From IMG/VR virus record IMGVR_UViG_3300043812_000016, positions 32,001 through 96,000 of that record: a stretch of 64,000 nucleotides of DNA. The stretch is one strand, 5' to 3'. A model generated the notes under the pieces. The model made no database searches, was not told the DNA's origin, and was given only the letters and a program-made list of their open reading frames with translations. Shown in pieces: positions 1 through 39,645 of this stretch (its first letter is position 1; each line of letters opens with the position of its first letter). Origin of the DNA: a virus (lineage: Duplodnaviria; Caudoviricetes). The position numbers were made by a program, and so were the translations under genes.

Positions 1-345
1 CCACCACAGTCTCCAACGCTATGGAACAAATATTATCTAACAAACATCCAAGACCTTTTTAACGGTTGCGCTCGACCGCCCCTAGTGGGCATTCGCCGTC
101 GCACACTGGAGTTGCTGTGAATTATCACTCGTACACATTCATATTCTCCTAGCTAAGAACGGGAATGGGATCAGACCCACCTACGTTGAAATGTTCTCCC
201 TATACAGACAACCATGTTACCATAGCCCTCCGTATCACCTCAGGTTCAATTCGATAATTCTAAATCCCTTTTTCTTACGGTATCACGAACTGAAATCCCT
301 TAAAATCATATTAGTCCCCAAAGCGGGACCTAGAGGCTTGCTCTA
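1..345 (-). ncRNA. Large structured ncRNA, ROOL-like, 5' part (runs off window start)
   Basis: ORF-free and GC-rich relative to the genome. The minus strand carries the ordered motifs TAGGGAG, TGTGTACGAGT, ACTCCAG, AAAAGGTCTTG and GCGTTGGAGA, which resemble ROOL RNA as I recall it. 5' boundary approximate. Confidence 0.55.
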
Positions 346-382
346 TAGCTATTCAAATATCTAAAGTTCTAACTCACTAAAA

Positions 383-2227: not shown

Positions 2228-2739
2228 TAACTAGAATTTCGCCTTGGTAGCCATCAGTAAAATACAGACCATCAAAGTTAGGATCTTTAATAATTTCCTT
2301 TACTTGCTTCTCCATTTTTAACAACTCGCCCTTTAGATTATCAACTAATGGGTGAGGAGAAATAATTTCAAATTCCATACTAACACCTTATTTCAGAAGC
2401 AACAACATTCGATCCTCAGCTACATGAACATTCGTATCAAGCTGTAATTTCAACAGGGAGGTATCTACGTTGTGTTTTACACCAGTTTCGGCTAATGGTA
2501 CTAGAATTTCCTTAAAACGGCTCTCAGCGCATTCTGGAGCTTTACAGACGGTATAAGCAACTGGACCATCCGAAAGTTGTCTGAATTTAACCTAATTCAA
2601 ACTCGTCTAACTGATCTCGTAGCTTATAAACGATCTGAGTAAGGATTACTAATCAAATTTTCGATCATATTGACCATTTCATAATTAGAATAGCCAATGT
2701 ATTTGAACAAGTAATACAATTTTACATAATAAGTTTTGA

Positions 2740-3000
2740 TTAACCAACTCTACCTTTCCACTGCTTGATTTTTGATACTTGAAAGTCATTCCATTCGTCT
2801 ACCTAGCCTTTCTCCTTGATAAATTCTAACCAAAGGTGAGGAAGCCATTCCGTGACTTTCCATGTAATTTATAATATCCATTCGAGTCTCAGCCAAACGA
2901 TCAATCAAAACCATCTTTGTCGACATCAACTGGGACAATTGCTTTTCTGTAACTTACACTTCATACAATTAGGTGTATGAAAGATAATTGCATGGTACAT
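2740..3000 (-). CDS. NrdH/glutaredoxin-like redoxin (frameshifted in assembly)
   Basis: Manual translation MYHAIIFHTPNCMKCK (CxxC), then HGMASSPLVRIY...DEWNDFQVSKIKQW in another frame. Confidence 0.6.
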
Positions 3001-3113
3001 TCAATATTCTCTTTTCGTTGTTCAGATTTAATAGTTTAATTATACTCCTTAACCCAATCCTAAGTGCTAATTCTATAGCAGGAAAATTTTATTTTTTTTC
3101 ACTATAAAATGGT

Positions 3114-3139
3114 TTTAATGGGAGAAAGTGTGATATACT
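3114..3139 (+). promoter_or_regulatory. SigA-type extended -10 promoter at the divergence point
   Basis: TGaTATACT at 3131-3139. Confidence 0.55.
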
Positions 3140-3144
3140 AGTAT

Positions 3145-3620
3145 TCGGGTAATTAACGTTACCTAATTGAATAGTGTAAACCGACAGCGACCTTGGTATG
3201 TATATAACTGCCTAAGCCTTGGTAGTCGGTAGGGTTTAGTCTCCCAATAGTCGTGGTATGACTCAGTAGACTCGCTACCAATAGGTAACGTTAAAGGCTC
3301 TTGTACGTGCCTGTCATTATTTCCCTCCCTTTCGTGGGAAAGACGAAACGTAACAGGGTGGTAATGATTAGTTCTGCTAATTATTGCTTGGACCGCGTAT
3401 TGGGGTTCCAATCCTAACTTATCAACTTTGCTCAGGGAGGTCCCTGAGGATAAACAAAAAAAAGCTCTGATTCCCGGATGCTAAAACTAGGATGTGATAA
3501 GTAGGACCAAGGGTGCGCTGAGGTTAAAAATGGAACAGTACGAATAAGCCGTAAAACGTAAATAAGTACTGATGTCTTGCGGAGTAATTATTACTCTGTC
3601 TTTATTCTCGCTAATTAGTG
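3145..3620 (+). ncRNA. Large structured ncRNA of unknown family
   Basis: No credible ORF. Perfect 13-bp helix 3153-3165/3282-3294, plus helices 3412-3424/3495-3506, 3431-3437/3442-3448 and 3536-3541/3566-3571. Confidence 0.6.
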
Positions 3621-4080
3621 ATAGCTTTACTTGATCTAATTATATTAGAATTAAAACTTAACAAATCATATGACATACCTCTCTAATACTGTAATATCAA
3701 TAACTAGAGTAGATTTATTACTAGAGAATTGACTGCATATTAGGGGGTGCTGTTTTGTTTTGTTGTTTCTTTTAAGTGTAATAAGCTAGGGTTAGATAGT
3801 CTGAGTTAAAGCTTAGTCCTTATTAATCTTATCTTATTATCTAGTATTTAAACTTAAGGAAGTAAGTAAGGTATAAGGTAATAAGATAGAGTAATAATAA
3901 GTAAGACATAAGCTAGAGATAAAGACTAGATATAGAGTAAGGATAAAGAAGAGAAGAAAAAAGATAGGGTAGTAAGAAAGTTTGAAATAAGGATTTACTT
4001 CTAAGCAAGATGAAGTTAGAATTTACACATAGCGTTACTTAATACAAGTTAGCTAATACATATGAATAAAACTAGAAGGT

Positions 4081-5185
4081 ATGAATAAAATGAGAACAAA
4101 ATCTAATACAGTTAAATCACTTAATAATCTTAAGCTGTTAAAGCAAGGTGATTTCAGTTATAAAATTGTAGTCACAAGCTATCACAATCAAAATCTTGAT
4201 TTAGGTCCGATTCAATTAGTGTCCTATGGCTATCTTATTATGGGAAATAGTAAGACTGATCGAGGTTATAAAGCTGTTAAAAATCTTAATCAGTTTATCC
4301 TTAACATGAGAGCTTTGATTATTGCTCTTCAAACGATGAAGAAAAGACAGGTTACTTGTATTGAAATCCAAGACCCTAAATTAAGAGACTTGATTACTGG
4401 TAAGGTTAACCCAGATGATATTAGGCTAACCCCTAAGGAAAGAAAGATGTTAATTAAGGTTGGGGAATTGCTTTCTCAATTTAAGAAAGGATTTCTTATT
4501 AAAGAAGTTGATCCTAGTCCTAGGGTGTATCAAGAATTAATGAAAATTCTTAAAACAATTAGACCTCATATTAGTGCAAGATTAAGAAAGAAATTTACTA
4601 GAAATAAGGTTGAACGTAAATCTGGTAATCCTATCATTATCCAAAAAGGTAAGAAACATATTGACTATGGATTTACTCCTTTATCACAGCTTGATTTTTT
4701 GCCTAAGAAAGCTATTAAAATTTACACTGATGGTGGTAAAAGAAATAAGACTAAGATTGGTGCTTATGCTTATTCGATTCAAATTCCAGACCGTCCCGCT
4801 ATCAATTTTAATAAAGCAGGTTCAAAACACTACTAACCAGCGAATGGAGTTAAAAGCAGTTTTGCAAGCTTTAAGAGATGCTCATTACTTACACGATAAA
4901 CCAATTATTATTGTTACTGATTCTCAGTATGTAATTAAAGCTCTGACTAACGATAGCTGGTTATACACTTGGGCGAAGAATGATTTGAAGAAACCTAACG
5001 GCGAAAAAATTAAGAATGCTGATCTTTGGCTGAGTATGTTAAAGCATTTGAAGAAGTTTAGTAACGTCTTCTTATATAAAGTAGAAAGCCATCAAGATAA
5101 TAAAGGAAATAATTTTGTTGACGATCTTGTTAATCAAGCTATGGACGAATACCAAGAAAAGAAAGGAATTAAAAGTAATAATTGA
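4081..5185 (+). CDS. rnhA: Ribonuclease HI with N-terminal extension (one frameshift near 4825)
   Basis: IYTDGG, TTNQRMELKAV, IVTDSQYV, KNADLW, KVESH and GNNFVD motifs split over two ORFs. Confidence 0.85.
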
Positions 5186-5246
5186 TTGACTTCTAAAAAC
5201 ATCGAAGTTAGAATTAAAATATATTAAAGGAAAGGAAGTTATAATA

Positions 5247-5579
5247 ATGACTAAACTTAGTAATGAAGACCAAGCAAAATACGAACGCTCTATGGATATG
5301 GCACAAGAACTAATTGAAAAAATGGGTGATACTTGGGACGGAGCTGATATTGAAGACATTATCTTCTCAATTGGTGTAGCGGTTGACGATCTTTGTACAA
5401 CTACTGATTTCCCACAAGAATTAGCCAATGATATTATCAGCATCACGCTTACCGATGACGATAGTACGGAAAGTGAATTAACTGATGAGGACGATGACCA
5501 TATGGAAGTTATTTCCTTAGATGAAGACGATAGTATCGAATTCCTCAAACATTTACTTAGTAAAAAAGATAATAATTAA
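5247..5579 (+). CDS. Acidic hypothetical protein
   Basis: RBS GGAAAGGAAG, SigA promoter (TTGACT ~5186), terminator ~5585-5612. Confidence 0.75.
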   Translation: MTKLSNEDQAKYERSMDMAQELIEKMGDTWDGADIEDIIFSIGVAVDDLCTTTDFPQELANDIISITLTDDDSTESELTDEDDDHMEVISLDEDDSIEFLKHLLSKKDNN

Positions 5580-5627
5580 GTATTAGGACTTGTCTAATTG
5601 ACAGGTCTTTTTATTTTGTCTTAACTT

Positions 5628-5666
5628 TGTAATATTGTTGTAACATTGCTGTAGTTGTTCTGTAAT
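5628..5666 (+). promoter_or_regulatory. Four WalR-box-like direct repeats
   Basis: TGTAAT-N5-TGTAAC-N5-TGTAGT-N5-TGTAAT; three of four match the TGTWAH consensus exactly; upstream of a LysM cell-wall gene. Confidence 0.65.
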
Positions 5667-5755
5667 AGGTGCGTGCTATAGTAAAGGTGTAATCAAATAT
5701 GAATATTGTATGAACAAACAAAGAATTCGTATGTAAATGAAAGGATAGATGGTTT

Positions 5756-6403
5756 ATTTTATTATCTAAGAAGAACAATGTTAAATTCGCTTTAGCTGGT
5801 GCTGTGATGGCAGGTGCTTTACTTGGTGCTACTACAGCTAATGCTGACACTAAGATTGATGATACTCATGTACGGGTAGAAGCTGGAGATACTGTTTCTG
5901 GCATTGCTAACAAGTACGGTACTGACGTATCAACAATTGCATCTGCTAGTAACCTTAGCGATGCTAACAAGATCTTCGTTGGTGATATTTTAGTGCTTAC
6001 TCCAGAAGCACAGCAACCAACTACTAATAATGTACAAACTCCAGTAGCTAACCAAGCTCAACCAGCTAGTCAAGCTACTGTTAATACTCAACCTGTACAG
6101 AACCAACCAGTGCAATCACAAGCACCTGTACAACAATCAACTACCCCAGTTCAAAGTCAACCAGCTACATCTGCTGTTTCTGGTTCAGTTCATGACCAAA
6201 GAATGATTGCTATTGTAATGCCTGAGTCTGGTGGTAATCCTAATGCTACAAATGGTCAATACTCAGGTTTAGGACAAACTAATCAAAGCTGGGGAACTGG
6301 TTCTGTGGCTTCTCAAACTCAAGGTATGATTAATTATGCTAATTCTCGTTATGGTTCTGTAGCAGGTGCTGTTGCCTTCCGTCAAGCTCACGGTTGGTGG
6401 TAA
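5756..6403 (+). CDS. Secreted LysM protein of aggregation-promoting factor (Apf) type; start uncertain
   Basis: Signal peptide, LysM domain, Q/P/T linker, C-terminal ESGG...NGQYSGLGQ...RYGS...FRQAHGWW. Confidence 0.8.
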   Translation: MLLSKKNNVKFALAGAVMAGALLGATTANADTKIDDTHVRVEAGDTVSGIANKYGTDVSTIASASNLSDANKIFVGDILVLTPEAQQPTTNNVQTPVANQAQPASQATVNTQPVQNQPVQSQAPVQQSTTPVQSQPATSAVSGSVHDQRMIAIVMPESGGNPNATNGQYSGLGQTNQSWGTGSVASQTQGMINYANSRYGSVAGAVAFRQAHGWW

Positions 6404-7337: not shown

Positions 7338-7395
7338 AGAATTGTTGGTTAAATACATTAATTAAATGTTAGTCAAATGGCCAATCCTTTCTTAT

Positions 7396-7468
7396 CGTGG
7401 AGTGGAGCAGTTGGTAGCTCGCCAGACCCATTATCTGGAGGCCACAGGTTCAAGTCCTGTCTCCGCAA
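7396..7468 (+). tRNA. tRNA-Met(CAT), initiator-like, with atypical anticodon arm
   Basis: Cloverleaf with C1:A72 mismatch; stem CCAGA/TCTGG; loop CC-CAT-TA; T-loop TTCAAGT. Confidence 0.85.
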
Positions 7469-7604
7469 TTGGACTTAGTTACCTTTGGGTGATGATAGCT
7501 AGGTCCTGCCTTCTTATAGTTAGACATTTGTTGAATGGTAGCTTCTTTTGGTTTGTAATTTTTGTTCGGACGTGTAAGTTTAACTGTGTGCAATTAGCAC
7601 ACTT

Positions 7605-7638
7605 GTCTCGATAGTCTAACTGGATAAAACATCGGATT
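7605..7638 (+). pseudogene. 5' half of a split tRNA (Arg-like)
   Basis: GTCTCGA acceptor strand, D arm AACTGGATAA, anticodon stem TCGGA; pairs with 8447-8483. Confidence 0.75.
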
Positions 7639-7649
7639 ATCTATTATAA

Positions 7650-7723
7650 GTGAGTATCGCCTAATTGGATAAGGCACTTGTCTTCTAAACAAGATATTAT
7701 GGGTTCAAATCCCATTACTCACA
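7650..7723 (+). tRNA. tRNA-Arg(TCT)
   Basis: Complete cloverleaf: GTGAGTA/TACTCAC, CTTGT-CTTCTAA-ACAAG, T-loop TTCAAAT. Confidence 0.92.
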
Positions 7724-7741: not shown

Positions 7742-8449
7742 GTGGTAGTAATTAAATATTTGATAAAAGATGTTAGTGACGATCAATTTATTAAAGCTGT
7801 TAAATCTAGTAAAACCTATACAGAGATTGCTAAAAAGCTTGGTGCTTACTATGCAAGTGCTCCCTCTGTTGTAAAACGTAGAATTGAACAGTTGGGGATT
7901 GATTTTAAACCTGTGTCTCCTAGATATGAACCAGATGACGTATTTTTCTCAGAGCATCATTATCATACTTCCCATACATTAAGAAGTAGATTACTAAAAA
8001 TAAAAGATCGTGAGTATATTTGTTCTGTTTGTGGGCATCTTCCTATATGGAATGGTCAAGCTCTTACATTGGAAGTTGACCATATTAATGGTGACTCATC
8101 AGATTGTAGGTTAGCTAATTTACGCTGGGTTTGTCCCAATTGTCACTCACAAACAAATACTTACAGAAGGGGTAATAGTGGTTCCCCTAGAGAATACTAT
8201 TATCATAGGGTATGTATTGTTTGTGATAAGGAATTTAAGTCTACATCCAGACATGCTAAATATTGCTCTAAGGAGTGTTATAAAAAGGCTTTTACCAAAA
8301 AACCTCCCATAGGTAAGAATGAACTTATCAAAAGATTACGACAGACTTCTTTTGTTCAGGTAGGGAGAGATTTTAACGTTACTGATAATACAGTAAGAAA
8401 ATGGTGTAGAAAGTATAACATTTCTACTAGGTCAAAAGATTATAAATAA
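7742..8449 (+). CDS. HNH homing endonuclease
   Basis: CSVCG...LEVDHINGD..DCRLANLRWVCPNCH, second Zn finger, C-terminal HTH. Confidence 0.9.
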   Translation: MVVIKYLIKDVSDDQFIKAVKSSKTYTEIAKKLGAYYASAPSVVKRRIEQLGIDFKPVSPRYEPDDVFFSEHHYHTSHTLRSRLLKIKDREYICSVCGHLPIWNGQALTLEVDHINGDSSDCRLANLRWVCPNCHSQTNTYRRGNSGSPREYYYHRVCIVCDKEFKSTSRHAKYCSKECYKKAFTKKPPIGKNELIKRLRQTSFVQVGRDFNVTDNTVRKWCRKYNISTRSKDYK

Positions 8450-31755: not shown

Positions 31756-33258
31756 TTGCCAGAATTACTAAAAGAAAAGACTGTAGTAAAGTCTGTTTTT
31801 AAACAAGATCAAGAAGACAAGTTAAACAAGTCTTTAAATAATGATAAGGCAGACCGGGTTGTTAAAGCCTTTACTGCTGGTACTGGTATTACGCCAGAAA
31901 CACAACCAGATGGTGCCGCTTACCGTATGGAAGCATTAGATCCTACTCTTAACATCTCTACTTATGGAGACGAAGATTACACAATCTACAAGGATCTTGC
32001 TAAGGTACCTGTTAACCAAACTGTTCAAAAGTATACTGTTTACTACTCACATGGTCGTACAGGACACCAAATGTTCCAACCAGAAATTGCCAAGCTTCGT
32101 TCTAACGAACCTCATGCACGGCAAAAGACTGTTAACGTTAAGTTCCTTGTAGACACTAAGGGTAGTTCATTTGCAATGCAATGGGCTAATACAACTGTTG
32201 ATACCAACATCTTGTTGGAAATCTCAGCTATTAACAACATTGCTAAGGCTATTGAATATGCTACTTTCTATGGTGACTCAGACTTGGCTCAACAAGACGG
32301 TGAAGGTCTTGAATTTGACGGTCTTGAAAAGCTTATGGACGAACACAACAAGATTGATATGCGTGGTTCTTCCCTTACACCACAAGCACTTAACTTAGCC
32401 GCTGTTAAGATTGCTCAAGGTTATGGTACACCAACTGATGCTTATATGCCGGTAGGTATTAAGGCTGATTTCGTTAACGAACACCTTGGTGCACAACGTA
32501 TCTTACAACCTAACTCAGCTGGTGCTGGTATGCAAGTTGGTCTTGATATTCAACGGTTCATTTCAGCTCGTGGTAATATTGCTCTTCATGGTTCAACTAT
32601 TATGGACCTTGATAAGAAGCTTGATATGGACGGTGCTGTAGACCAAGACGCTCCAGTAGCTCCAACTGTTAAGGCAGAAGTTGTTACTGGTGACAATGGT
32701 ATGTTTATGGCAGACGACAAGAAGGACAAAGATGATAAGGTTGTTCTTAACAAGTCTGTTGGTGTTGACTTAACATACCGTGTAGTCGCCGTAGGTCAAC
32801 AAGACTCATTACCATCTGATGAAGTTAAGGTTAAAGTTACGAACACTACTGATACTGTTAAGATTACTGCAACTCTTAACCGGATGGTTGCTAACATTCC
32901 TGATTATGTTGCAATTTACCGTAAGTCAGATGTTCCGGGCGATGACCAATTCTGGCTTGTAGGTCGTGTAGCTATCTCTAAGATGGCTGGTGATGGTACT
33001 ATTGTATTCGAAGATAACAACGAAACTATTCCGGGTACTGGTGACGTATTCATTATTGAAAACCGTCCAACTACATTACGTTATCTCGAATTTGCACCAA
33101 TCACTAAATTCCCGCTCGCAATTACCACTACTGCTACTAACGTTGCATATTTGTGGTTTGGGAGTTTAGCATTAATCTTCCCTAAGCGGGTAGCGCTACT
33201 CCACAACACATTATATAACTCAACAGCTAAGTCAATTCCTTCCAGTGTAATTGATTAG
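31756..33258 (+). CDS. Major capsid protein precursor
   Basis: KAFTAGTGITPETQ, HGRTGH, IAKAIEYATFYGDSDL, GLEFDGL; RBS favours the TTG at 31756. Confidence 0.95.
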   Translation: MPELLKEKTVVKSVFKQDQEDKLNKSLNNDKADRVVKAFTAGTGITPETQPDGAAYRMEALDPTLNISTYGDEDYTIYKDLAKVPVNQTVQKYTVYYSHGRTGHQMFQPEIAKLRSNEPHARQKTVNVKFLVDTKGSSFAMQWANTTVDTNILLEISAINNIAKAIEYATFYGDSDLAQQDGEGLEFDGLEKLMDEHNKIDMRGSSLTPQALNLAAVKIAQGYGTPTDAYMPVGIKADFVNEHLGAQRILQPNSAGAGMQVGLDIQRFISARGNIALHGSTIMDLDKKLDMDGAVDQDAPVAPTVKAEVVTGDNGMFMADDKKDKDDKVVLNKSVGVDLTYRVVAVGQQDSLPSDEVKVKVTNTTDTVKITATLNRMVANIPDYVAIYRKSDVPGDDQFWLVGRVAISKMAGDGTIVFEDNNETIPGTGDVFIIENRPTTLRYLEFAPITKFPLAITTTATNVAYLWFGSLALIFPKRVALLHNTLYNSTAKSIPSSVID

Positions 33259-37467: not shown

Positions 37468-38389
37468 TTGTCTAAGGAAGATATAAGAAACTATTTTCAA
37501 ATACAAAAACAACCCGGAGCAATCCAGACTTATAATGGTAATCCAGATTATGCTCTAGGTAGTGATTATGAAGGATGTAACCCTAGATTCTTTAGGTATT
37601 AATATTGACTTAATTAAAAATGAACTTATGGGTATGGAAAGAGACTTAGTAGATCCTGTTACTAATGAGCCTTATCCAGACAGTTTTTATAAGATGATTT
37701 TAAATCGGGTGGTTGCACAGGCTGAAAAGATTTTTGACGTGGCAATTGTTCCTCGTCTACAGGTAGACCGTTTGGACTATCACCGTTCAGACTTTAATGC
37801 TTTTGCCTATCTACATACAACAATGAGACCTATTTTAAGTGTTAAGGACTTATTACTCTATTATAATAATCAAGATATTATGCACATTCCAGACGAGTGG
37901 ATTAAGGTAACTAATCGTACAGGTCAATTACAAGTATCTCCGTCTGTATTAATGCAAGGACTTAATACTACTATTAACCCTACTGTTTATCCTTTAATTA
38001 ATTCTCCTTATGGAATGACTCCTAGTCCTTTTACTCAAATGGAGTTTGCTCCTCAAATGTTAGGAGTAACTTATGTAGCTGGTATGATGCCACATACTGG
38101 TAAAGACGGGGTTAATTATGATTGGATGATTCAACCGGATATGCTTTCGTATATTGCTAAGTTAGGTGCTGTAGAAATTTTGGAGAAATGGTCACGGAAC
38201 ATAGTAGGAGCGGGTATAGCGTCATACAGTGTTTCAGTGGACGGTATATCTACTAGTCTTAACACTACAGCTTCTGCTGAAAACTCAGCCGCTACTGCCG
38301 AAGTAGATCAGATGGTTCGAGATATGAAACCTATAGAACAGCGCTTGCTTTCCTACTATGGCAACCCTGAGATAGGCTGGTTTTCATAA
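37468..38389 (+). CDS. Head-tail adaptor/neck protein (frameshift near 37570)
   Basis: GAGIASYSVSVDGIS...TTASAENS; late motif upstream. Confidence 0.75.
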
Positions 38390-38424
38390 CTAAAATGTGT
38401 TATATTGTATTTTTAATTTCATTA

Positions 38425-38558
38425 TTGACAATTACGACTATCATGCTATTATAGTATTTGTGGGTTCATTAATTAATTTCGATTTTGGCTTAACATATTT
38501 ACACCTATATACTACTTTTGTGTTTTTAAGGCACCTATTAATTTAGGTGTCTTTTTTG
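38425..38558 (+). ncRNA. Promoter-sRNA-terminator unit E
   Basis: TTGACA-N16-TATTAT; core complementary to AGGTGTAAATATGTTAAGCC; terminator 38528-38558. Confidence 0.6.
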
Positions 38559-38613
38559 TGTTTTAAATTCAACCTATATTAAAGAGGATAAATAGAAAGT
38601 AGGTGAAATTATA

Positions 38614-39645
38614 ATGGCTGATAATCCTTTGCATGAAAAAGTAGAGTCTGCTAATCCGTTTTACCCAGCTAAGAATAATATGAATCCTCTTGATATTGAT
38701 AGGGTAGTTCAGTTAATTCAGCAACACGCAGTTAATGTTGTTTGGGAGCAGGCTTATCATTGTCCTTGTTTAGACGAACAGACAGGTCAACCTCAGCCTA
38801 ATTGTCCTGTTTGTCATGGTCAAGGTTGGATTTATTTACATCCAAGAACAATTGATATGGCAATTCAGGGTGATGAAAAGAACTTTAGCTTAAATCCTAC
38901 TGGTATGGATAATTTAGGTACTAGCAAAGCAACTCCACAAGTTACTGTAAATGGAATTGAGCAGGGGATTAAGCCGGGTGATAGAATTACAGTTACTGGG
39001 TGGACAACTAATGACTCTTATACATTTAATGTGACTAATGAACGTTTACAAGATGGCCTATTTTTACCATTTGATGTAGCCTCTATTAACGAAGCTTATT
39101 ATATTGAAAATGGAGAATTAAAATCTATTAACGATATTGCTGATTCATTAGTAGTTAATGAAGGCAACCAATTAGAGATTAAGGACGAAAGTTTATTAGG
39201 TAGAGTTATTACTTTATCTTTAGAGGTTGTTAAACGCTTTTATGTTGTTTCTATGATTAAAGAATTACGTTATCAACAATATTACAAGCTTAATCAAAAA
39301 CTATGGGCTTTAGGTAATGGTACCCGTGCAGTTAATGAAGATGAGGCTGTTATTAATGAAGATGACCAATTAGGTAATGAATATGTTAATCCTAATGATA
39401 TGAGTAGTATTGTTCCTAAGAATATTAAACAGGCTCAGTTACGCTCTTATCCTCAAGTAGTAAATCGTGACGGGGCACAAATTGTAATTGGTAAGCACCA
39501 GATTTTTAGGATGCCTCCTACATTACTAATTAGAAGAGAAAATCTTTACTTCTCTAATGTTAACTTGGCAACCTCAGACGGTAAGAATCAGTCTGTAATT
39601 AAGAACCCAACATTGAATGAGTTTGACGACTTCCTAGGGGGCTAA
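38614..39645 (+). CDS. Head closure/neck protein
   Basis: WEQAYHCPC...CPVCHGQG. Confidence 0.75.
   Translation: MADNPLHEKVESANPFYPAKNNMNPLDIDRVVQLIQQHAVNVVWEQAYHCPCLDEQTGQPQPNCPVCHGQGWIYLHPRTIDMAIQGDEKNFSLNPTGMDNLGTSKATPQVTVNGIEQGIKPGDRITVTGWTTNDSYTFNVTNERLQDGLFLPFDVASINEAYYIENGELKSINDIADSLVVNEGNQLEIKDESLLGRVITLSLEVVKRFYVVSMIKELRYQQYYKLNQKLWALGNGTRAVNEDEAVINEDDQLGNEYVNPNDMSSIVPKNIKQAQLRSYPQVVNRDGAQIVIGKHQIFRMPPTLLIRRENLYFSNVNLATSDGKNQSVIKNPTLNEFDDFLGG

Follow-up and report, generated by a model that had tools for sequence, protein, structure and literature searches.

Large structured RNAs of elusive function, such as ROOL, GOLLD, OLE and the long non-coding RNAs (lncRNAs) of phage K, are a long-standing puzzle, and several of them live in phages of lactic acid bacteria. 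Cryo-electron microscopy has shown that ROOL and GOLLD self-assemble into cages (bioRxiv 10.1101/2024.12.08.627333), and RNA sequencing of phage K (Kayvirus, Herelleviridae) found two abundant lncRNAs, lnc001 and lnc002 (PMC9241854). Here we describe a stretch of about 465 nucleotides (nt), at 3146-3610 of a 64,000-nt viral DNA window, that very likely gives rise to a real, selected and structured non-coding RNA. Like ROOL and GOLLD, it is large (>400 nt), free of open reading frames (ORFs), highly structured and carried by a phage of lactobacilli. The window is positions 32,001 to 96,000 (G000:C1:32001-96000) of a 143,482-bp IMG/VR virus record, IMGVR_UViG_3300043812_000016, rated complete. 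Because of PHROG matches to capsid, sheath, tape measure and endolysin proteins, we regard its source as a Herelleviridae-like myovirus of lactobacilli; the capsid protein is 62% identical to that of Lactobacillus phage LfeInf, with SPO1-like Lactobacillus phages as the next matches. A first-pass annotation, made from the letters of the window, had proposed an unassigned structured RNA of ~470 nt at the point where transcription diverges, and the follow-up bears this out: there is RNA-library coverage, there is covariation, and there is no match to a known family. We think it probable that 3146-3610 is a separately transcribed, stable RNA and the founding member of a new RNA family. What is new about the locus is the fixed linkage of a large RNA to RNase H-family genes inside an exchangeable cassette.

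The RNA lies where gene orientation switches, genes running leftward left of ~2990 and rightward from 4081 on, and it is preceded by the promoter listed in Table 1. The extended -10 element, which the first-pass annotation had already seen and which a consensus scanner overlooked because there is no -35 match, is kept as TATGATATAAT in the relatives L007 and L009, and the promoter is conserved in all five related phages. Homology between these two relatives and the window ends precisely at 3137, right behind the -10 element. Elsewhere in the window, no further copy of this promoter class (GGTTTTA...GATATA) was found. The GC content, correctly noticed as raised at the outset, is 40-44.5% over 3101-3600 and 27-33% on either side. 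The predicted 5' end of the RNA follows from the -10 element and its predicted 3' end from a terminator-like hairpin, which is the only such site (+ strand) within 2500-4400. This hairpin appears to be leaky, as one RNA-library contig runs from 3291 to 4225. The A/T-rich spacer behind it is conserved together with the RNA, with a divergence of only 0.6-1.2%, even in comparison with the type A contig L022 described below. A tract within the spacer had been taken for an "anti-start" element; the sequence is indeed present, beyond the terminator-like hairpin, and no evidence supports any role for it.

Two lineages of the RNA were recognized. Four related IMG/VR contigs were reached via the neighbouring proteins, and two of these, L002 and L003, carry the RNA at 97-98% identity. 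L007 and L009 are 83-97% identical to the window on both sides, their homology stopping at 3137 and resuming near 5160. Behind the same promoter, L007 has non-coding DNA with only two blocks in common with the window RNA (at window 3179-3234 and 3443-3534). The first lineage, type A, comprises the window and seven contigs (L002, L003, L022, L028-L031), and the second, type B, comprises three contigs (L007, L021, L040). In both types the two shared blocks stand at one locus behind one promoter, and three structural elements described below (Px, Py and a pseudoknot) are kept with differing sequences, a comparison for which no significance test is possible. Homologues were sought by scanning for motifs, three times in IMG/VR and once each in the JGI metagenomes and the GTDB genomes, and by look-ups of neighbouring proteins. 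The scans recovered this phage clade only, plus chance matches in high-GC coding DNA (L014-L017, L019, L020, L023), and a motif match in L026 is presumed to be chance as well; the pattern of conserved block 2 was likewise confined to this clade in IMG/VR and the GTDB genomes. Through the neighbouring proteins, another four type A contigs that include the RNA region and one contig of type B came to light, and no further lineage. Throughout IMG/VR, the JGI metagenomes, the GTDB genomes and ENA/Logan, both lineages were only ever seen at this locus. DNA runs containing the stretch came from pig gut, chicken gut, faeces, digesters and sludge.

The RNA hardly changes within either lineage. Between the window and L022 there are no changes in 3146-3280 and 3461-3610 and 12 in the middle third, with flanks that differ by 8-19%. 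The 375-nt core of type B shows 1-3 changes against L021 and L040, in a 1.1-kb region that differs by ~5% as a whole. Both cores are almost invariant (0-3 changes, with 5-19% in the flanks), which at the level of sequence indicates purifying selection on the RNA. A different stretch occupies the locus in L009 (IMGVR_UViG_3300045988_140928): behind the conserved promoter, 4836-5900 is an unrelated, ORF-free and GC-richer region of ~1.06 kb that shares with the window RNA only a pseudoknot-like motif (CUGAUACCCAG-UGCUUUA-GGGUA) and GAGGUUAAA. It may represent a third RNA class at the locus.

The only ORFs in the RNA region are TTG-started frames of 38-82 aa, none of which matched Pfam, in agreement with the initial impression that no ORF here codes like a phage gene. 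All other copies have a 1-nt indel around 3327-3333 that disrupts both frames spanning it (3163-3411 on the minus strand and 3301-3417 on the plus strand), and gene callers annotated nothing in the RNA region of the ENA contigs. The conserved block GAGGUUAAAAAUGG (3522-3552) resembles a Shine-Dalgarno sequence with a start codon. It is followed by mutually unrelated frames of 5 aa in type A, 21 aa in type B and 21 aa in L009; this is probably not a gene, though the resemblance to a ribosome-binding site is conserved.

We searched for known RNA families using cmscan with Rfam 15, scanning the whole window at gathering thresholds and 2900-4100 at E <= 10. The former returned two tRNAs only, and the latter a single match, a chance snoRNA at E = 9.9. 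The corresponding regions of L007 and L009 matched no Rfam family either, and a blastn search of 50,697 phage records gave no match to the RNA. ROOL (RF03087) had no covariance-model match at the gathering score or at E <= 10, and GOLLD (RF01998), with its conserved 3' half containing pseudoknots, had no model match in the window, L007 or L009. Group I and II introns, of which no core had been recognized by eye, known ribozymes, RNase P, tmRNA, 6S, OLE, HEARO and raiA also gave no Rfam match. In the window, ARAGORN found only tRNA-Met and tRNA-Arg, at 7395-7723, 3.8 kb 3' of the RNA.

The + strand of the RNA folds to -146.4 kcal/mol (z = -3.5), with none of 100 shuffles equally good, and the minus strand folds worse by 23 kcal/mol. 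The G.U pairs, the promoter and the terminator are concordant with this, all pointing to the + strand as the one transcribed. Near the 5' end, the hairpin GGGUAAU-UAAC-GUUACCU has an alternative: 3153-3165 can pair with 3282-3294 in a perfect 13-bp long-range helix, an inverted repeat that had been spotted in the first-pass annotation among nested long-range helices. The palindrome AACGUU lies within both alternative pairings and is conserved in both lineages; it is the sole hint towards a possible cage assembly like that of ROOL and GOLLD. Conserved block 1 is 75% identical to L007 4396-4449, in a region that is otherwise unalignable. In the middle of the RNA, a 13-bp hairpin favours the + strand because, on the opposite strand, A.C mismatches would stand in place of its four G.U pairs. 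Five of its 13 pairs vary among ~12 copies and the RNA-library variants, and pairing is always kept; a double change turns U-A into C-G at 3365/3383, and positions 3362, 3366, 3376 and 3380 show wobble-mediated changes. The 3' arm of the adjoining hairpin Pw (GUUCCA) has an alternative pairing with UGGAAC at 3531-3536.

The clearest comparison between the lineages comes from the 3' domain. Helix Py pairs CCUA[A]CUUAUCA with UGAUAAGUAGG in type A and CCGAAGUA with UACUU[U]CGG in type B, with three double compensatory differences. Hairpin Px reads CUUAGGUG-AAGAA-CACCUAAG in type B and shows two double compensatory differences from type A. Taken together, Px and Py have five compensatory pairs between the lineages and none broken, and each helix was predicted independently in each lineage. 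The helices were checked by script on both lineages because MAFFT misaligns Px and Py between them, and their registers were matched manually from one lineage to the other. In each lineage, the segment separating Px from the 3' arm of Py contains an A-rich linker (RWAACAAAWAA) and a hairpin, the latter forming part of a candidate H-type pseudoknot whose loop UAAAAC is conserved in both. The pseudoknot of type A has a 7-bp stem S1 and a stem S2 of 3-4 bp; in type B these stems measure 4 and 6 bp, respectively. Neither GGACCNAGGGU nor GGUUAAAWAUGGA, the two parts of conserved block 2, is accounted for by simple helices. Compensatory changes are seen both within type A and between the lineages.

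Table 1. Coordinates of the features at the RNA locus, in window positions.
Feature	Position	Strand	Details
Promoter	3111..3139	+	Extended -10 element TGATATACT (TG-A-TATACT) at 3131-3139; A/T-rich tract upstream; weak -35
Structured non-coding RNA (proposed), type A	3146..3610	+	~465 nt
5' hairpin	3147..3164	+	GGGUAAU-UAAC-GUUACCU; pair probability 0.94
Conserved block 1	3179..3234	+	AACCGACARCGA ... ACUGCYUAAGC ... UAGUCGGURGGG; holds the invariant ACCGAC/GUCGGU complement
13-bp hairpin	3360..3372/3376..3388	+	Four G.U pairs; pair probability 0.94
Hairpin Pw	3388..3411	+	UUGGA/UUCCA core; probability 0.68 in A, 0.15 in B
3' domain	3413..3505	+	Closed by helix Py; contains Px, A-rich linker, pseudoknot
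Helix Py	3413-3424/3495-3505	+	11 bp in A, 8 bp in B; probability 0.92 in A, 0.58 in B
Hairpin Px	3431..3448	+	CUCAGGG-AGGU-CCCUGAG in A; probability 1.00 in A, 0.97 in B
Candidate H-type pseudoknot	3463..3493	+	S1 3463-3469/3475-3482; loop UCC 3472-3474 with GGA 3490-3492, across conserved GCUAAAAC
Conserved block 2	3504..3534	+	GGACCNAGGGU-N7-GGUUAAAWAUGGA; position 3509 freely A, U or G
Terminator-like hairpin	3579..3599, then CUUUAUUCUC to 3609	+	9 bp, 3 G-C; pair probability 0.93
A/T-rich spacer	3611..3780	+	Co-conserved with the RNA; includes CATATGACATACCTCTC at 3667-3683; G/U-rich run at end
Purine-rich, C-poor tract	3781..3990	+	TAAG-like repeats; GC skew ~+0.5
Sigma-A-like promoter of RNase H operon	3994..4022	+	TTTACT-17-TAGAAT
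RNase H fusion gene	4081..5185	+	N-terminal domain of unassigned family plus RNase H; Pfam RNase_H 3.9e-24

Six RNA runs contain part of the stretch, and four of them (X15-X18) were mapped on 2700-4500. The RNA is covered by RNA-library contigs of three studies, two of which yielded short contigs that do not extend beyond it. Contigs lying wholly inside the RNA were found in X16 (331 nt, 3240-3571), X17 (350 nt, 3174-3524) and X18 (347 nt, 3166-3513), and no RNA-library contig covers the promoter gap at 2948-3165. In X16 the depth is 14.9 on the RNA contig and 2.0 on the next gene. Both neighbouring genes are represented in X18, the leftward one by contigs up to 2947 and the RNase H gene by contigs from 4149 on, with none bridging 2948-3165 or 3514-4148. 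X17 has no cover outside the RNA; its uncovered parts, like 3514-4148 in X18, are not proof of absence. These contigs accord with the transcript that the first-pass annotation had expected, and since assembled contigs show neither strand nor true ends, they are support and not proof.

The same contigs bear on the idea that the RNA is a long structured 5' leader of the RNase H operon, attenuator- or riboswitch-like, whose fold chooses between termination at 3579-3609 and read-through. The RNA lies directly upstream of the operon in the same orientation, it ends in a terminator-like hairpin, one contig reads through, and RNA and operon are co-inherited. Set against this, ~470 nt separate the hairpin from the start codon, the RNA and the gene have separate RNA-library contigs, at the unequal depths seen in X16, and no known riboswitch or leader family matches. 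The operon moreover has its own conserved sigma-A-like promoter at 3994-4022, for which the aligned counterpart in L007 reads TTGACT-17-TAAGAT, and this separate promoter speaks against the RNA being merely an operon leader. We therefore regard a leader function as very unlikely.

Several observations weigh against a selected, independently transcribed RNA. With only two diverged lineages, no R-scape-type covariation statistics are possible. The minimum-energy folds of types A and B disagree in the 5' domain, where the invariant ACCGAC/GUCGGU helix has a near-zero predicted probability and competes with the long-range helix in type A. Pseudoknot stem S2 is just 3-4 bp in type A, and the type B fold has a z-score of only -1.9. 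A covariance model built from type A alone missed type B at default filters and, with filters off, matched it weakly (E = 0.0024) with Py misaligned. The low divergence of the RNA could in part come from recent cassette exchange and not from selection. The X15 contig (3291-4225) passes through the terminator into the next gene, which reflects some read-through or DNA carry-over, and DNA carry-over could also be present among the RNA-library contigs at large.

Some of these points would fit a locus with no functional RNA at all, that is, an intergenic relic or spacer whose fold and low divergence stem from base composition and recent recombination between phages. The family is tiny, with two lineages within one phage clade, recent cassette exchange can yield low divergence, and the type B z-score is weak. 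On the other side, compensatory and pair-preserving changes occur in three helices with none broken, and the same helices recur in lineages that cannot be aligned there by sequence. An invariant core within diverging flanks is seen independently in both lineages, short discrete RNA-library contigs lie inside the RNA, and the promoter is conserved. We find it highly improbable that the region is a mere spacer, and retain the reading as a separate structured RNA.

The RNA is one part of a larger unit. Segment 3138-5160, which holds the RNA, a purine-rich tract and RNase H-family genes, is replaced as a unit between relatives. The purine-rich tract is ~70% identical to L007 5139-5313 and varies by 11-17-nt repeat indels between close relatives, its position being kept in types A and B and in L009. 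Its purine content of 69% is equalled elsewhere in the genome, and the tract could consist of iterons, serve to form a hybrid or be no more than a spacer. A frameshift interrupts the RNase H fusion gene in the window copy; 13 other contigs have the gene intact, as the 367-aa form P0002. In L007 the cassette holds a 201-aa ORF and two RNase H genes with an RNase H1 hybrid-binding domain, and in L009 it holds one such gene, for which Pfam reported the hybrid-binding domain alone. This domain (Cauli_VI) was matched at E = 1e-13 to 1e-19 in the RNase H genes following the RNA in relatives. No significant similarity was found between the N-terminal domain of the type A fusion and the type B 201-aa ORF.

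The make-up of the cassette recalls plasmid replication. ColE1 RNA II is transcribed from a constitutive promoter and has a functional tie to RNase H, and the window RNA could be a similar pre-primer of an R-loop replication origin. In such a scheme, read-through past the weak terminator would produce a purine-rich RNA that hybridizes stably with the template, the RNase H1-type enzymes of the cassette would cut it to leave a 3'-OH primer, and the structured 5' part would control hybrid formation and render each cassette self-specific. The cumulative GC skew of the whole genome has its minimum at G000 35,060, which is window position 3,060 and ~90 nt ahead of the RNA, and the C-poor, purine-rich tract and the A/T-rich spacer lie just downstream. 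RNase H genes with a hybrid-binding domain always follow the RNA, likewise in the distant phage Lb338-1, the X15 contig is continuous, and RNA, tract and RNase H genes are swapped as a unit, like replication modules. However, the reversal of gene orientation accounts equally well for the skew minimum, RNA and tract are separated by a terminator-like hairpin, and three of the four RNA libraries have short contigs confined to the RNA, with none over the tract. The tract varies by repeat indels and is matched in purine content elsewhere, the type A RNase H has no hybrid-binding domain, and origins in this phage group (Herelleviridae) are still unmapped. A pre-primer role is therefore unlikely. 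It is no less doubtful that RNA, purine tract and RNase H1-type genes make up a self-contained, exchangeable replication-initiation module of a lytic phage, with the RNA as its cassette-specific pre-primer or regulator. If true, Herelleviridae would possess a means of priming like that of ColE1 or of mitochondria, with the R-loop processed by the module's own RNase H.

Variation at the locus raises a further alternative, an anti-defence or host-takeover molecule, in which the RNA would act early and in abundance as a decoy or inhibitor of a host sensor or nuclease, and the diversifying RNase H paralogues would belong to the same counter-defence island. The locus is hypervariable behind a conserved promoter, with three different RNAs among phages whose flanks are 83-97% identical, and the cassettes differ in the number and domain make-up of their RNase H genes. 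A sigma-A-type promoter is also compatible with early expression. Within each lineage, however, the RNA is extremely conserved and not diversifying; no defence or anti-defence protein family was found adjoining it, and its target is not known. In the search for trans targets, 12-mer complementarity to the rest of the phage genome was at about chance level. We consider this role quite unlikely, and favour an RNA that acts in its own right within the cassette.

Based on these data, we propose the following model. Host sigma-A RNA polymerase would start a few bases past the extended -10 element, and most transcripts would stop at the terminator-like hairpin, with some reading through. The RNA would fold into a 5' domain around block 1, a central part made of lineage-specific hairpins, and a 3' domain in which Py encloses Px, the A-rich linker and the H-type pseudoknot, with block 2 next. 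It would act as RNA and not as message, presumably as a free scaffold or protein-binding RNA of the general kind of ROOL, GOLLD and the phage K lncRNAs. It seems to us rather probable that this RNA is free and acts in trans, and is not a primer or leader. Its likeliest partners would be the RNase H-family proteins of its own cassette, a pairing that we offer tentatively. RNA, purine-rich tract and RNase H-family genes form a cassette that is swapped as a unit among phages of the clade. The fixed genetic partner leads to a concrete hypothesis, in which RNA and RNase H act together in replication priming or counter-defence, and since gut samples of pig, chicken and other animals, as well as digesters, commonly contain the phage, material for experiments should be obtainable.

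A number of further features were noted around the locus. Compared with all other assemblies, the window copy has 1-nt indels in the RNase H fusion gene, in an NrdH-like gene upstream of the RNA (2786-2990; 86 aa in relatives) and in the RNA itself (3333), and these are probably assembly errors and not pseudogenes. In some relatives a TnpB/OrfB_IS605 gene lies a few kb from the locus (L028 5054-6104; L040 6640-7800), at a place taken by other genes in the window, which points to mobile elements being active around the cassette. Further downstream, an HNH endonuclease gene (7742-8449) and the tRNA-Arg gene (7650-7723) lie within segment 7627-8460, which we interpret as an insertion because it is missing in L007 and L009. 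The distant Lactobacillus phage Lb338-1 has an architecture like that of the window locus, with ~1 kb of unannotated DNA at its divergence point (L027 5015-6015; NC_012530 ~42.9-43.9 kb), directly before a hybrid-binding RNase H gene. That stretch gives no clear folding signal on the RNase H strand (z = -1.06) and z = -2.6 on the opposite strand, and the intergenic region has no match to an Rfam family.

A second ORF-free stretch, of ~750 nt, spans window 1-358 and the sequence upstream of it (G000 ~31.6-32.36 kb) and adjoins two leftward tRNA genes; in L018 it corresponds to 3604-4360 on the minus strand. It has no Rfam match, the upstream 8 kb having been scanned, and its fold z-score is only -1.07, which is not significant. 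Because homology with the relatives begins only at window 354, we regard it as another variable non-coding cassette. Neither this candidate, nor phage K lnc002, nor the L009 RNA has sequence similarity to the window RNA.

How, then, does the RNA compare with described systems? ColE1 RNA II is an analogue in arrangement, being likewise a structured RNA of ~500 nt that lies upstream of a potential RNA:DNA hybrid region and is linked to RNase H. The window locus differs in having a terminator-like hairpin and ~170 nt of spacer before the purine tract, no equivalent of the antisense RNA I was seen there, and RNase H is phage-encoded here and host-encoded for ColE1. With the lncRNAs of phage K, the RNA shares the phage family and the character of a long non-coding transcript from a large intergenic region in the left-hand part of the genome. 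The sequences are not similar, however, and the phage K RNA at K 37679-38832 lies directly upstream of a tRNA cluster on the leftward strand, so that the position of lnc002 fits the candidate at window 1-358 better than it fits 3146-3610. With ROOL and GOLLD the RNA also has in common that it appears abundant relative to neighbouring mRNAs and has tRNA genes in its neighbourhood. It matches neither of their covariance models, is shorter, does not stand directly beside the tRNAs, and has RNase H genes linked to it. No analysis of structure or conservation is known for the phage K lncRNAs. Unrelated to these and to ROOL, GOLLD and OLE, the RNA described here would add to them one more family, whose transcription unit is clear and whose structure is modelled in part, a pseudoknot included, and a locus at which related phages hold different large RNAs behind one promoter.

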